Positions 8,471-14,225 of a stretch of 64,000 nt of DNA are shown piece after piece. The stretch is taken from the sequence record PZ212788.1; one strand, given 5' to 3'. Source of the DNA: a phage. Made by a program: the position numbers and the translations under genes. Under the pieces are notes generated by a model. It did no database searches. It was not told where the DNA came from and was given only the letters and a program-made list of their open reading frames with translations. Numbering within the stretch: the first letter of the stretch is position 1; the number at the start of each line of letters is the position of its first letter.

Positions 8471-9402
8471 TGCATATAGTCCTCGTTGTGAAAATAGCAA
8501 TCAAGTATCTCACGGCGTTCCTGCTCCAGGAGGCAGTTCCACACATCTTCTGTGTAATTGCTACGAATGAAGTTTACCATGCCATAAAACTCTTCGTCAA
8601 TACGTTTAAAGATATCATCATCCCAAATCTTCCAAGCTTTACCCCTCATTACGGCCTTCCGTGCCAAATAGTATGGAGACTTGATCTTCAGCTGCAGGTC
8701 ATAAGGGTAGTAAGGCTTACGGATCATATACCCTTCGCCCCTTGTTTCTGCAGCTAATTCTTTTGCATAGCTGAACGGGATTTCACGCACAGTGTGAGGA
8801 CGTTTTGCACCAAGGTATTTGGCAATCCCATCTAAAGCTGCTTCTGGTAGCATTATTCCAGAATCATTATATCTGCAACCTATCAAATATGCGCCATGGT
8901 CTTCTTGAACAATATGCGGATCTGAAGGGTGACAAATTTCAAACATGAATGTCATGTTTTCATTGCCCATAACCTTCTTGATAAGATCTAAATTACCACA
9001 TTGCTCTTGGATGGTTTCCTTTGCAAGGTTACAATATGGAGAATCAAGAGACCCGGTTGTTGAGAACAATAGGTCACCTTTATGAGATGATACCACACCA
9101 AGGAATCCGTTCTTTTTCTCTACCGCAGTCACAAGCTTATTGTCAGGCAGGTTGGTGGAGTTTTCTCCCAAGTTAAACACTTTTGTGAAGGGCCATGCCA
9201 CAACATTTCCTTCATTACCTACAACAATGCCTCGGCACTCCAGTAAACGAGGGGACAAATGCCATAAATTGTTGTAAAATACTTTTCTAGCATATTTATA
9301 GATCTTTAACCCGAGATCTGGGTAATACCTACTGGTTACAAGACCTTTATCAACTAGGTCGTCTGCATTAAAATACTTCATCATACGTTCCTCATTTGTC
9401 AT
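8467..9402 (-). CDS. rnlA: RNA ligase, T4 Rnl1 (RnlA)-like
   Basis: PRLLECRGIVVG and VFNLGEN align with T4 Rnl1 PDALECRGIMFE / FFNLNEN; nucleotidyltransferase motif I KKNGF, motif IV EGYMIRK, motif V LKIK. Confidence 0.75.
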   Translation of the reverse strand: MTNEERMMKYFNADDLVDKGLVTSRYYPDLGLKIYKYARKVFYNNLWHLSPRLLECRGIVVGNEGNVVAWPFTKVFNLGENSTNLPDNKLVTAVEKKNGFLGVVSSHKGDLLFSTTGSLDSPYCNLAKETIQEQCGNLDLIKKVMGNENMTFMFEICHPSDPHIVQEDHGAYLIGCRYNDSGIMLPEAALDGIAKYLGAKRPHTVREIPFSYAKELAAETRGEGYMIRKPYYPYDLQLKIKSPYYLARKAVMRGKAWKIWDDDIFKRIDEEFYGMVNFIRSNYTEDVWNCLLEQERREILDCYFHNEDYMQ

Positions 9403-9413
9403 TTTGTCAGTCT

Positions 9414-9442
9414 ATCCTGTCACACAAATAACCTAGTGTCAA
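9414..9442 (-). promoter_or_regulatory. candidate sigma70-like promoter for RNA ligase operon
   Basis: Minus-strand TTGACA-N17-CAGGAT; weak -10. Confidence 0.3.
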
Positions 9443-9445
9443 CAC

Positions 9446-9474
9446 TTGAAATTAACAAAACAGTTAGATATACT
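9446..9474 (+). promoter_or_regulatory. sigma70-like promoter TTGAAA-N17-TATACT
   Basis: Good -35/-10 with 17-nt spacer, back-to-back with minus promoter; lies upstream of GGGGG RBS and ATG 9503. Confidence 0.55.
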
Positions 9475-9502
9475 ATCGTTGAAATTAAAACGGGGGGTCA
9501 CT

Positions 9503-9913
9503 ATGTCTAAAATGCTATATATCGTGCGTGGTCTACCAGGGTCTGGCAAATCAACACTGGCAAATGCGCTATCTTTAGAGGGTCTGTATCCACATTTTGA
9601 GAACGACATGTTCTGGTATGACGATGACGGCAATTACAACTGGGATGCAAGTAAAGTAACACTCGCAGCGAAATGGTGCAAAGATAACGTAGAAGATATG
9701 ATGCGTATGGGATACGACCGTATCGTGGTAAGTAATACGTTTACAAAAGAAAAACATGTGCAGGAATATGTTGACATGGCAATCAGTCATGGGTATAGTT
9801 ATACCGTGATCGTGGTTGAAAACCGCCACGGTAATAAAAGCATTCATGATGTTCCAGACAAGGTTGTGGATCGTATGGAACGCCAGCTTAAAAACTGCAT
9901 TAAACTTAAATGA
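9503..9913 (+). CDS. P-loop polynucleotide kinase-like protein
   Basis: Walker A GLPGSGKST directly after start, size and layout like T4 Pnk kinase domain; start set at 9503 because ORF-track Met at 9446 lies upstream of the promoter -10. Confidence 0.6.
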   Translation: MSKMLYIVRGLPGSGKSTLANALSLEGLYPHFENDMFWYDDDGNYNWDASKVTLAAKWCKDNVEDMMRMGYDRIVVSNTFTKEKHVQEYVDMAISHGYSYTVIVVENRHGNKSIHDVPDKVVDRMERQLKNCIKLK

Positions 9914-9920
9914 GGAATGT

Positions 9921-10475
9921 ATGAAATACTTTGTAACAAGCGACACACACTTTCTCCACCAGCGGGTCATGGAGTTTGATTCATGTCAAAAACACAGATC
10001 TCAGTATGATCACAATCTTGACAGTATGAATGCGGGAATCATCGCCGAATGGAACTCTGTTGTGTCACCTGCAGACACTGTGTTCCACTTGGGAGATATT
10101 GCGTGCACTAATGATAAGAATATCAACAACTTACTTCCAGATATTCTAAATATGTTGAACGGACATATTATTCTTGTTCGTGGCAACCATGACACAAGGA
10201 CGACTGTCAGAATTATGAAAGAGTTCGGTCATGAGGTTGTAGATTATTACGAGCTTCGCCACAACAAGAATTTGATCTGTATGAGCCATTACCAATTTGC
10301 AAAGTGGAACAGAAAGCCTCACGGATCAGTCCAACTGTTCGGTCATGCTCACGGAACCACACAACAGTTGTTTGGCAGGCAGCTTGATGTCGGTTGGGAT
10401 GTGTGGGGGAGACTCTTACCATTAGAAGAGGCATACCGTATTGCAATGAGTTTTGCTATTGACAGCGGGGAGTAA
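9921..10475 (+). CDS. calcineurin-like metallophosphoesterase (candidate polynucleotide 3'-phosphatase)
   Basis: Motifs SDTHF, HLGDI, RGNHD, GHAH; GAGG RBS; start 9921 eight nt after kinase stop. Confidence 0.6.
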   Translation: MKYFVTSDTHFLHQRVMEFDSCQKHRSQYDHNLDSMNAGIIAEWNSVVSPADTVFHLGDIACTNDKNINNLLPDILNMLNGHIILVRGNHDTRTTVRIMKEFGHEVVDYYELRHNKNLICMSHYQFAKWNRKPHGSVQLFGHAHGTTQQLFGRQLDVGWDVWGRLLPLEEAYRIAMSFAIDSGE

Positions 10476-10522
10476 TCCCTGCTATTTTAAAGAAAATTGC
10501 CACACAAGGAGAATCAGGAGAT

Positions 10523-10873
10523 ATGAAAGATGGGGATAAGCTGCTATATCTTAAAGTCCCCCTTGAAATACTGTCTATGTCAAAAGTTTTGAATGACACA
10601 ACTGGAGAGGTTGTTGTTCTTGACTTGTATGACAAGATCGTATACTGCTACCTGCACAACTGGTATAAGCTTGGAGGAAATTCACGCTTCACACCCAGCA
10701 CAAGGAAAATTGCAGCAGATGTTGGGATAAAGAAAACAAAAGCAGCAGCGTGCGTTAAAACTTTAGAGTGTGCAGGGGTGGTTGAAACATCCACACAAGG
10801 GAGAGGTAAAAGATGCACATTTTCCAAAGTTTTGCCACCAGAAGAAGTTATTCGGATGTCAACAACTGGTTAG
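10523..10873 (+). CDS. winged-helix/HTH DNA-binding protein (candidate iteron-binding protein)
   Basis: HTH-like segment STRKIAADVGIKKTKAAACVKTLECAGVVE; gene directly precedes iteron array. Confidence 0.4.
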   Translation: MKDGDKLLYLKVPLEILSMSKVLNDTTGEVVVLDLYDKIVYCYLHNWYKLGGNSRFTPSTRKIAADVGIKKTKAAACVKTLECAGVVETSTQGRGKRCTFSKVLPPEEVIRMSTTG

Positions 10874-10947
10874 ACCAGTAAAAACTTAAATATCTGTACT
10901 ATAAGGATTCGTATGTTTTATGTTCGCTCTAGAATAGAGGTCAGTAA

Positions 10948-11030
10948 CTGTCCGTGATACGGACACTACTGTCCGTCACGCGGACACATCTGCCCGTAAT
11001 ACGGACACTAACTGTCCGTGATACGGACAC
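10948..11030. repeat. iteron array: four direct copies of 19-bp palindromic site CTGTCCGTGATACGGACAC at 21-22 bp spacing
   Basis: Copies at 10948-10966, 10969-10987, 10990-11008, 11012-11030; copies 1 and 4 identical; each has TGTCCG/CGGACA arms around a 5-nt spacer. Confidence 0.8.
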
Positions 11031-11534
11031 ATAAAGAATATAACTAAAATAACTAAATAATAAAAAATAAAAGATCTAGTACTTATGGTACTAAAGTACA
11101 TATACTTAACTTATGTAGAATATACTAGATCCTAAGTACCATGTTTTAAATTTATTACTTACTATAGGTAGTGTCGGCCCTTCATTGGCACTCGCCTACG
11201 AGGGGCGAGATGCCGGGCCTCCATAGTGCACACAATAACAGAAGTGCATACATGCAGGTCTGTTAACATGTGTGGGAGCGAAGCGATAGCGCAGGCCAAA
11301 GGCCGAGCACTAATGTGGACCACCGACGAAAGCTTGCCAGCGCCGTAAGGAGTCGGTTGAGAGCCTCCCGCGCGAGTTTGGATAAAGTTTATGTGTGGAA
11401 ACTGACAAGAAGGCCCCTAAATCGCTCCACAGCTATATAAACTATACCAAGTAAGGCAATCGCACCAGTTTGATAGAAAAGCTCGTTACAAAGCGATACA
11501 GTGAGTTTTTCTATAACTTGAAGAGGAGTCTGCT

Positions 11535-12113
11535 ATGAGTTCACGCAAAGATGCCAGTGAAAAGATTGCAAAACGTTATCAGAATGAAGAACAGATGGAG
11601 AAAACTTTCAAGTGGAAGCCAGGTTTCCAGCGTAATCATTCTAACGCTCGTGATCGTAAGCATCCTGATAAGTGGCTAACACCGCCAAATGATGGCATGC
11701 AGGTTGGTGATGAGAAGGAGCTATCACCTGGAAAAGATGGCAACTACATTCGCACTAAGGACGCTAGTCCAAAGGATGACAGCTATCTTGTAGATAAGGT
11801 TCTTAATGGTATTGATGTAGATGTTGACACTACACGGAACTTTTTTCTTGGGTGGTATCGCACAGGTTTTTTCGACATCAAGGCCATTCGTCGTGTTTGT
11901 GATATTAAAAAGTCTGCATATGATGACGACTCGTTACATCGCACACTGAGACAATATTCAGAAAGATATGGTCATCCGGTTATCACTCTTGACGATGTTA
12001 ACGAAGTGATGTATCATGCAGAGGTTGTTGCAGGCAGATTTGGTGATGCATATCTTGATATCCTTTCTGCAAACGATGAGGTAATGTTGAATAAGATTTA
12101 CTACGAACGTTGA
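11535..12113 (+). CDS. hypothetical protein
   Basis: ORF with GAGGAG RBS. Confidence 0.45.
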   Translation: MSSRKDASEKIAKRYQNEEQMEKTFKWKPGFQRNHSNARDRKHPDKWLTPPNDGMQVGDEKELSPGKDGNYIRTKDASPKDDSYLVDKVLNGIDVDVDTTRNFFLGWYRTGFFDIKAIRRVCDIKKSAYDDDSLHRTLRQYSERYGHPVITLDDVNEVMYHAEVVAGRFGDAYLDILSANDEVMLNKIYYER

Positions 12114-12123
12114 GGAGAGCTTA

Positions 12124-12312
12124 ATGAACAATCCGGTAGCAAAGAATTGTAATAAGTTCAACAAGTCTGCAATTCACACTGACAGGAAAAAGAGCTGGTC
12201 ACCGGACATTGACGAGGAGCTTGAGAATTACTTTGAAGATCTGGTTACCAATGCAGGTGAGGTTGCGATTAAAGAATACGCAGACAGGAGGGATAAGGCC
12301 GGAATCTGTTGA
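12124..12312 (+). CDS. hypothetical small protein
   Basis: ORF with GAGGAG RBS. Confidence 0.35.
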   Translation: MNNPVAKNCNKFNKSAIHTDRKKSWSPDIDEELENYFEDLVTNAGEVAIKEYADRRDKAGIC

Positions 12313-13411: not shown

Positions 13412-13486
13412 GCCCTGTTAGCTTAGTGGATAAAGCAGCGGCCTTCTAAGCCGTTGACACTGGTTCGAGTCCAGTACGGGGTGCCA
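13412..13486 (+). tRNA. tRNA-Arg (anticodon TCT)
   Basis: Hand-folded cloverleaf: acceptor GCCCTGT/ACGGGGT, D arm GCTT/AAGC, anticodon stem GCGGC/GCCGT with loop CTTCTAA, T arm ACTGG-TTCGAGT-CCAGT, discriminator G, encoded CCA. Confidence 0.8.
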
Positions 13487-13490
13487 AATT

Positions 13491-13577
13491 GGGGAGTTAT
13501 CCCGTAGGGGTAGCGGTGTAGACTGTAAATCTATTGTCATTGCGACTCGGGTGGTTCGACTCCACCACTCCCCACCA
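13491..13577 (+). tRNA. tRNA-Tyr (anticodon GTA), type II
   Basis: Acceptor GGGGAGT/ACTCCCC, anticodon loop CTGTAAA, long variable arm, T arm GGTGG-TTCGACT-CCACC, CCA encoded. Confidence 0.8.
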
Positions 13578-13692
13578 AATTTATAGTTTTAAATGCATAA
13601 ATCATACAGATAATGGCATTGATATTTATCGTCGTTTATACTAGTCACTAACTGCTCGAAAATCAGTGTCATTATCAGTATTGTTTATAAAT

Positions 13693-13778
13693 GAGGGTAG
13701 GGAGCAATGGTGCTCAAGCGGTCTTGAAAACCGTCCCGTTGAGGATGACTTGATGATGGTTCGATTCCATTACCCTCA
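13693..13778 (+). tRNA. tRNA-Ser (anticodon TGA), type II
   Basis: Acceptor GAGGGTA/TACCCTC, anticodon stem GCGGT/ACCGT with loop CTTGAAA, long variable arm, T arm ATGG-TTCGATT-CCAT. Confidence 0.75.
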
Positions 13779-13879
13779 GCCATATTGTTGACCTTGTAAT
13801 TAATCGAAAGCCGGAAGCAGAACCGGATTATCAAATGTTACAGTCGTCATCGCCGACTAGCAACATGGTCAACATACTG

Positions 13880-13976
13880 AGCTAGGTAAGCCCTTTGGCA
13901 AGGGCGAGGATTTTTAATCCTGAAAATAGACGAGGTAGTCGTTGAATACATAGGTGGTTCGATTCCATCACCTAGC
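13880..13976 (+). tRNA. atypical tRNA-like element (97 nt), anticodon hairpin presenting TTT (Lys-like), with about 30-nt variable-region insertion
   Basis: Acceptor GCTAGGT/ACCTAGC, D arm GCCC-TTTGGCAA-GGGC, hairpin AGGA-TTTTTAA-TCCT, T arm GGTGG-TTCGATT-CCATC; too long for canonical tRNA. Confidence 0.4.
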
Positions 13977-13985
13977 ACCTTTTTT

Positions 13986-14061
13986 GCTGATGTAGCACAA
14001 TTGGTAGTGCAATTGATTTGTAATCAATAGGTTGCAGGTTCAAGTCCTGCCATCAGCACCA
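13986..14061 (+). tRNA. tRNA-Thr (anticodon TGT)
   Basis: Acceptor GCTGATG/CATCAGC, D arm GCAC-AATTGGTA-GTGC, anticodon stem ATTGA/TCAAT with loop TTTGTAA, T arm GCAGG-TTCAAGT-CCTGC, CCA encoded. Confidence 0.8.
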
Positions 14062-14062
14062 T

Positions 14063-14137
14063 GGCCCTGTAGCTGGAAGGTTCAAGCAAGCGACTCATAA
14101 TCGCCAGACGGTGGTTCAATTCCACCCAGGGCCACCA
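14063..14137 (+). tRNA. tRNA-Met or tRNA-Ile2 (anticodon CAT)
   Basis: Acceptor GGCCCTG/CAGGGCC, anticodon loop CTCATAA, T arm GTGG-TTCAATT-CCAC, CCA encoded. Confidence 0.7.
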
Positions 14138-14148
14138 AATAATAAATA

Positions 14149-14225
14149 CTCCGCGTAGCTCAGCTTGGTAGAGCGCCTGATTTGGGATCAGGAGGTCGAG
14201 TGTTCGAATCACTCCGTGGAGACCA
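14149..14225 (+). tRNA. tRNA-Pro (anticodon TGG)
   Basis: Acceptor CTCCGCG/CGTGGAG, D arm GCTC-AGCTTGGTA-GAGC, anticodon stem CCTGA/TCAGG with loop TTTGGGA, T arm GAGTG-TTCGAAT-CACTC, CCA encoded. Confidence 0.8.

Follow-up and report, generated by a model that had tools for sequence, protein, structure and literature searches.

The origin of phage lambda contains four dyad-symmetric boxes of ~19 bp spaced approximately two helical turns apart, with an AT-rich unwinding region directly on one side. These iterons and the AT-rich region lie inside gene O, in the linker of the two-domain initiator O, whose N-terminal part is a winged helix and whose C-terminal domain brings in P-DnaB. In plasmids, iterons are typically direct repeats that are not palindromic and to which monomers bind. 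The specificity of iterons normally drifts fast along with the initiator. Our literature search found nothing linking Vequintavirus with iterons, nor any report of the palindrome TGTCCG-N5-CGGACA as an iteron.

The window analyzed here, a stretch of 64,000 nucleotides of phage DNA, contains four such palindromes. A 1.2-kb query around them matched 119 phage records at 90–100% identity, three of them at 100%, and all 119 were Vequintavirus, so that the window was assigned to this group of rV5-like E. coli myophages with a genome of ~136 kb. The 'Campylobacter phage' records among the matches are misattributed Vequintavirus. In the annotated relatives, RNA ligase and Sir2 genes on one strand are followed by a divergent switch, after which the genes for polynucleotide kinase and phosphoesterase, a 116-aa gene named 'transcriptional regulator / replication initiation protein', a 660-bp gap, small genes, a tRNA cluster, spanins, and the large terminase are arranged in this order. 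The features of the locus are as follows.

10459–10488, plus strand: sigma-70-like promoter ahead of the 116-aa gene, TTGACA-18-TATTTT with an upstream TG, 10 of 12 consensus matches
10523–10873, plus strand: 116-aa winged-helix gene, candidate initiator, corresponding to rV5 gp075/ORF79; no C-terminal domain
10948–11030, no strand: array of four 19-bp dyad-symmetric boxes, core TGTCCG-N5-CGGACA; proposed initiator-binding iterons
10948–10966 and 11012–11030: boxes 1 and 4, identical, CTGTCCGTGATACGGACAC
10969–10987: box 2, CTGTCCGTCACGCGGACAC, three substitutions
10990–11008: box 3, CTGCCCGTAATACGGACAC, two substitutions
11031–11165, no strand: AT-rich tract of 135 bp, 19% G+C vs 44% in the window; candidate DNA-unwinding element
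11166–11500, no strand: conserved G+C-rich stretch of 335 bp, 52% G+C vs 44% in the window; apparently non-coding

A repeat search placed the starts of the 19-bp boxes at 10948, 10969, 10990, and 11012, with start-to-start spacings of 21, 21, and 22 bp, and the core palindromes begin at 10949, 10970, 10991, and 11013. An earlier sequence-only reading of this DNA had described four 19-bp copies at these positions, two identical and two with 2–3 substitutions, each containing the inverted repeat TGTCCG-N5-CGGACA; the sequence confirmed both points, every box being a dyad. The half-site centers within a box are 11 bp apart and the boxes lie two helical turns from each other. The helical-phase geometry claimed in that reading, with dimer sites on one face of the DNA, follows from the 11-bp half-site distance and the 21/21/22-bp spacing, and its placement of the array after the winged-helix gene at 10523–10873 and before an AT-rich tract was also correct on both sides. 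The array is intergenic, with the first box 75 bp past the stop codon (10871–10873) of the 116-aa gene. When one mismatch was allowed, the pattern matched only these four sites in the 64-kb window, where 0.04 ± 0.24 matches were expected, and none of 100 shuffled sequences reached four matches. In the complete rV5 genome (137,947 bp), the only boxes with at most one mismatch were likewise the four of the array, at 65,152–65,232. A few records annotate the array merely as 'repeat_region'.

The locus resembles ori-lambda in three respects. Four dyad boxes of ~19 bp are set about two turns apart, an AT-rich region (here 11031–11165) directly flanks them, and the boxes are linked in cis to a gene for a protein whose winged helix, at the N-terminus, is predicted to bind them as dimers. 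It differs in that the lambda origin is inside gene O, whereas the Vequintavirus array starts downstream of the stop codon; O has a second domain, whereas the 116-aa protein is a winged helix only; the iteron sequence is unrelated; and rV5, a lytic myovirus of 137 kb, encodes a primase-helicase and a polymerase of its own. Furthermore, Phage_rep_O (PF04492) was absent among the Pfam families matching the 116-aa protein at E values up to 1. Because two lambda features (origin within the gene and two-domain initiator) and a Phage_rep_O match are missing, we class the array as a candidate iteron-type origin of the lambda kind and do not place it in the O family proper.

The 116-aa protein showed borderline similarity to DUF6945 (27.4 bits; cut-off, 28) and HTH_36 (PF13730; 24.5 bits, E = 2.3e-5; gathering cut-off, 25 bits). 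PF13730 was also listed in precomputed tables for the cluster representatives P0001 and P0003, with the P0003 match marked 'weak' in the locus tables. Weaker Pfam matches were to generic winged-helix regulator families such as CodY, LexA, TrmB, and MarR-like. Against PHROG 12838, 'replication initiation protein', of which it is the founding member, the protein scored 5e-80, and weaker matches were found to the initiator PHROGs 8102, 428, and 270. Among structures, it matched PDB 4ro3 (E = 3e-6). HMMER and word-based searches for relatives yielded genus-level homologues at 87% identity or more and a few weak matches only. Two distant relatives, P0009 and P0011 (194–217 aa), share the N-terminal winged helix and carry acidic tails (...DEAPF and ...DPDAPF) reminiscent of the C-terminal protein-interaction tip of SSB; the 116-aa protein has no such tail. 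P0011, the sole weak match for which DNA was available, is located on a 1.7-kb contig in which no iteron array was found. A single-sequence AlphaFold model of the 116-aa protein had a pLDDT of 39 and was unusable.

The putative promoter at 10459–10488, at whose equivalent position the rV5 RefSeq record annotates the sigma-70-type promoter 'P76', implies early expression of the 116-aa gene by the host polymerase. A scan restricted to promoters of the sigma-70 type detected none between 10489 and 11896 on either strand, and no terminator-like site (G+C-rich hairpin followed by a T run) was found in 9300–12200.

The AT-rich tract, which contains an inverted repeat (GATCTAGTA at 11073–11081 and TACTAGATC at 11123–11131), corresponds in rV5 to the most AT-rich 120-bp windows of the whole genome (20% G+C), at 65,011–65,150, adjoining the array. 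Windows around 105.96 kb are also among the most AT-rich of the rV5 genome, and at a convergent junction in this part of the genome, outside our window, 2.6 kb (NC_011041.1, 104013–106618) carries no annotated gene and the GC skew changes there too. The whole-genome GC skew was a check named in the sequence-only reading. The cumulative skew of rV5 has its global minimum at 66–67 kb, 1.5 kb from the array at 65.15–65.23 kb, and the profile of the window agrees; the same point, however, is the divergent switch in transcription direction. The rV5 genome paper stated that skew analysis showed only changes that follow transcription direction, and the origin was not located. Since the switch in skew falls where transcription diverges, we treat GC skew as weak evidence. 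The uniqueness of the array and the AT extreme are independent of gene orientation. DnaA boxes did not cluster at the locus.

The G+C-rich stretch at 11166–11500 had RNA folding z-scores of −2.45 and −4.10 on the plus and minus strands, respectively. An Rfam scan of the intergenic region yielded no family, the best local match being a spurious one to rli43 (26 bits; cut-off, 100), and a covariation test among eight genomes found no compensatory changes in 11166–11500. Its small ORFs showed no protein-family similarity in a local comparison. Some records call tiny ORFs in this stretch (rV5 ORF78), and an 18-bp indel polymorphism (AGTGCACACAATAACAGA) occurs among isolates. This region could be a structured RNA or DNA element or a remnant, and its membership of the origin is uncertain.

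Conservation of the repeats in related phages, another check named in the sequence-only reading, was found across Vequintavirus. We aligned the intergenic region of 11 genomes or contigs spanning the genus, among which protein identity falls to 87%. The half-sites were variable at 1 of 48 positions, the central N5 spacers at 7 of 20, the inter-box linkers at 0 of 13, and the 75 bp between the stop codon and the array at 26 of 75; in the genus alignment the AT-rich tract was variable at 11 of 136 positions. The differences between the half-sites and the central spacers (Fisher test, p = 5e-4) and between the half-sites and the upstream flank (p = 9e-6) were significant. Within the genus, selection acts on the half-sites and not on the central spacer, a pattern that would be expected for dimer-binding dyads at fixed phasing. 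The number of boxes ranged from two to four among isolates: four in 10 of 14 sequences, three in A147 and V18, and two in vB_EcoM_YN3. The reductions are whole-unit deletions that regenerated intact boxes and kept the box adjoining the AT-rich tract. Three short-read Logan contigs (L175, L176, and L177) end within the array, and GenBank record MG065672.1 begins exactly at it; these ends are most likely assembly breaks at the repeat and not physical genome ends.

To place the box among other phages, we scanned IMG/VR. A single-box scan gave mostly chance single matches and several clustered loci, whereas the two-box pattern was specific and returned 17 loci with 3–7 boxes placed 20–25 bp apart. 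At all 17 loci, the array was inside one ORF, directly 3′ of an N-terminal winged helix. The ORFs belong to six unrelated protein families.

Family A, nine loci, 133 aa: HTH_36 at 1.4e-8; PHROGs 270, 345, 678, and 391, 'replication initiation (O-like)'
Family B, four loci, 363–387 aa: related to the 'replication initiation protein' of Prochlorococcus phage MED4-184
Family C, one locus (L083), 380 aa: PHROG 345
Family D, one locus (L082), 251 aa: PHROG 16167 at 6.6e-15
Family E, one locus (L115), 345 aa: no matches
Family F, one locus (L034), 334 aa: HTH_IclR at 4.5e-6

PHROG matches of the 'replication initiation / O-like' type back families A, C, and D. The 116-aa protein aligns with the box-bearing winged helices of IMG/VR, at an identity of only 11–23%, and hhalign against a profile of the array-associated winged helices gave a probability of 91.8% (E = 7.6e-7). 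In 12 of 14 representatives, the G+C content of the 60 bp downstream of the array was below that of the locus (with values such as 0.38 vs 0.65, 0.45 vs 0.66, and 0.28 vs 0.46), and the AT-rich stretch after the in-gene arrays codes for linkers rich in Lys, Asn, and Glu. Successive in-gene boxes are read in different frames, e.g., as SEIRT, CPESGH, and VRNPD in family A. Because the box spacings (22–23 bp) are not multiples of three, selection acts on the DNA and not on the peptide. Genes near the arrays included RusA (three times), Rad52, and DNA methylases, which are typical of replication/recombination modules. These uncultivated loci thus share with Vequintavirus the identical half-sites and 5-bp spacer, the position of the array 3′ of an aligning winged helix, and, in most cases, the AT dip. 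They differ in that their arrays are translated within a longer protein, except in the 133-aa family A, whose gene ends just past its array, whereas the Vequintavirus array is intergenic, and in that their hosts are mostly high-G+C or non-enterobacterial. In the cultured relatives MED4-184 and Klebsiella phage LASTA, this in-gene position is occupied by short repeats of another kind.

The missing C-terminal domain was sought in the neighborhood of the Vequintavirus array. The next ORF starts at 11535 and encodes a 192-aa protein of PHROG 12226, function unknown, for which a local comparison with the C-terminal domains of box-bearing initiators revealed no similarity. This gene and the small ORFs of 11166–11500 gained no support as candidates for that domain. 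No helicase-loader gene is present beside the 116-aa gene; the DnaB-like primase-helicase and T7-like polymerase genes of rV5 are located at 127–131 kb. Further downstream, five tRNA genes are clustered at 13412–14222, ~2.4 kb from the array, one with a long insertion (13881–13977, 35.5 bits), and an Rfam 15 scan of the whole window detected tRNAs only.

In bacterial genomes, the two-box pattern returned a mixed set. Prophage-like copies of the same architecture were found in Actinoplanes, Treponema, Kiritimatiellae (two loci), and Parachlamydiaceae. Seven Burkholderiales loci (L142, L144, L150, L152, L155, L162, and L170) had two boxes at 20 bp, most of them at or near genes for PAS/AAA+ sigma-54-type activators, and these box pairs look like activator binding sites using the same palindrome. 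They resemble known sigma-54 activator sites (TGT-N-ACA dyads) and differ from the window array in having two sites only, at 20-bp spacing, in chromosomal regulatory regions, with neither a winged-helix initiator gene nor an AT-rich tract; the surroundings of the window array, in turn, contain no gene for a sigma-54 activator. Many Myxococcota loci also carried the two-box pattern. Because the set is mixed, the box alone is not diagnostic; a winged helix, at least three phased boxes, and an AT dip are diagnostic in combination.

Plasmid systems were also compared. The RepA_N initiators (pSK41 RepA; PDB 4pql and 5kbj) likewise use an N-terminal winged helix to bind repeats near or inside the rep gene, and the matches of the 116-aa protein to RepA_N chains had E values of about 0.8, which is not significant. 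Plasmid iterons are direct and non-palindromic, whereas the Vequintavirus boxes are palindromic. A PLSDB search for homologues of the 116-aa protein yielded none except a Vequintavirus genome deposited as a plasmid, and the module was rejected as the basis of a plasmid replicon on this result. This deposit (CP057073.1) is a complete 137.6-kb genome, the circular 'plasmid' pRHB39-C03_2 of a cattle E. coli isolate, and hints at a carrier state or episomal persistence; a search of RefSeq complete E. coli genomes for this phage gave no match.

The sister genera were reached via the neighboring phosphoesterase gene. Neither Mydovirus KB57 nor Seunavirus GEC_vB_MG had the 116-aa gene or the boxes; the module is thus genus-specific and not part of the subfamily core. 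In the divergent intergenic region, Klebsiella phage KB57 (L180, 2445–2551) and Salmonella phage GEC_vB_MG (L181, 2713–2758) carry two to three copies of TCTAATTATTCCC-N-GGAAT at 24-bp spacing. These repeats have the form ATTCC-N5/6-GGAAT, differing from TGTCCG-N5-CGGACA, and may be the counterpart, in these genera, of the control or origin site.

The recurrence of one box beside such divergent proteins allows a broader reading, which we put forward tentatively. TGTCCG-N5-CGGACA might be the conserved iteron 'word' of a very old and highly diverged superfamily of HTH_36-type phage initiators, the word having stayed fixed while the proteins fell below 25% identity, and might form part of a portable origin cassette, of which rV5, a large lytic myovirus, would have captured a minimal split form (DNA-binding domain only, iterons outside the gene). 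The corresponding host range, from Enterobacteria to Actinomycetes, Spirochaetes, Chlamydiae, and Kiritimatiellae, is similarly a possibility on which we place limited weight. If this reading is true, the box would allow the origins of many uncultivated phages to be called from sequence alone.

The array could also serve functions other than replication. As an operator, it would be bound by the 116-aa protein acting as a transcription factor that represses or blocks read-through from its own gene into the downstream genes and the tRNA cluster, or regulates a promoter in the AT-rich tract. In many GenBank records, the gene is named 'putative transcriptional regulator'; its Pfam matches are to generic winged-helix regulator families; a roadblock could matter since no terminator separates the gene from those downstream; within the AT-rich tract, a phage-type promoter is predicted in one record; and absence from the sister genera is as for an accessory regulator. 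We nevertheless consider an operator unlikely, because on neither strand does a sigma-70-like promoter overlap or adjoin the array, 500 bp separate it from the start of the next gene, arrays elsewhere lie within O-like initiator ORFs followed by AT-rich linkers and not at promoters, and the coincidence with the AT extreme and skew minimum of the genome would be left unexplained. Far less probable is a pac site ~4 kb upstream of the large terminase gene, whose repeats would be bound by the 116-aa protein as the small terminase subunit. Small terminases are often short proteins that have a winged helix at the N-terminus and bind to repeats, none is annotated in rV5, the locus is on the same strand as the large terminase gene and ~4.3 kb upstream of it, and record MG065672.1 starts at the array. 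The family matches of the 116-aa protein, however, are to replication initiators and not to terminases, family A has a separate 140-aa ORF overlapping the large terminase start with the box-bearing gene 1.7 kb upstream, the rV5 genome is reported to be circularly permuted, and the contig and record ends are explained by assembly breaks at repeats.

Action at the level of RNA or single-stranded DNA is also very doubtful. Each box can form a hairpin with a 6-bp stem and a 5-nt loop, the single-strand fold of 10940–11040 has a z-score of −5.84, and the restriction of variation to the 'loop' is as compatible with a hairpin as with a protein site, so that four hairpins in the 3′ UTR of the winged-helix mRNA could affect its stability or processing, or cruciforms could act without a dedicated protein. 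There is, however, no U-tract or terminator, unrelated phages keep the half-site sequence itself and not just its pairing potential, with no compensatory stem changes, and the linkers and phasing are invariant, which independent hairpins would not need. The origin reading has its own difficulties: the 116-aa protein has no C-terminal domain and its gene no adjacent helicase loader, the array is outside the ORF, the module is genus-specific, isolates with two or three boxes exist, the skew minimum is at a transcription switch, and the same palindrome occurs beside sigma-54-type activators in Burkholderiales.

Taken together, the layout, which the sequence-only reading had ascribed to an origin or a strongly regulated operator, is supported, and the anatomy of the locus, the uniqueness of its array, the AT extreme near the skew minimum, the selection on half-sites, and the recurrence of the box in O-like initiator genes favor an origin. 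By analogy with lambda, the array is probably the iteron part of a lambda-type replication origin of Vequintavirus phages, and we hold this with moderate confidence. All biochemical steps in the following scheme are modeled on lambda. Early after infection, host RNA polymerase would transcribe the 116-aa gene from the sigma-70-like promoter, and the 116-aa protein would bind each TGTCCG-N5-CGGACA box as a dimer with the half-sites on one face of the helix. The same-face dimers, two turns apart, may then assemble a nucleoprotein complex that is wrapped or bent and resembles the lambda O-some, and the resulting strain would open the adjoining 135-bp tract of 19% G+C. The phage DnaB-like primase-helicase and T7-like polymerase would be loaded next, and because the 116-aa protein has no C-terminal recruitment domain, loading would occur by melting alone or via another phage factor.

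Phages of the rV5 type have been isolated widely and are components of cocktails for therapy and biocontrol, and their origin has never been located. A candidate origin of ~220 bp together with a named candidate initiator makes the origin question directly testable and would aid phage engineering. That six or more unrelated initiator families share one box suggests that it could be a general origin marker in metagenomic phage genomes.
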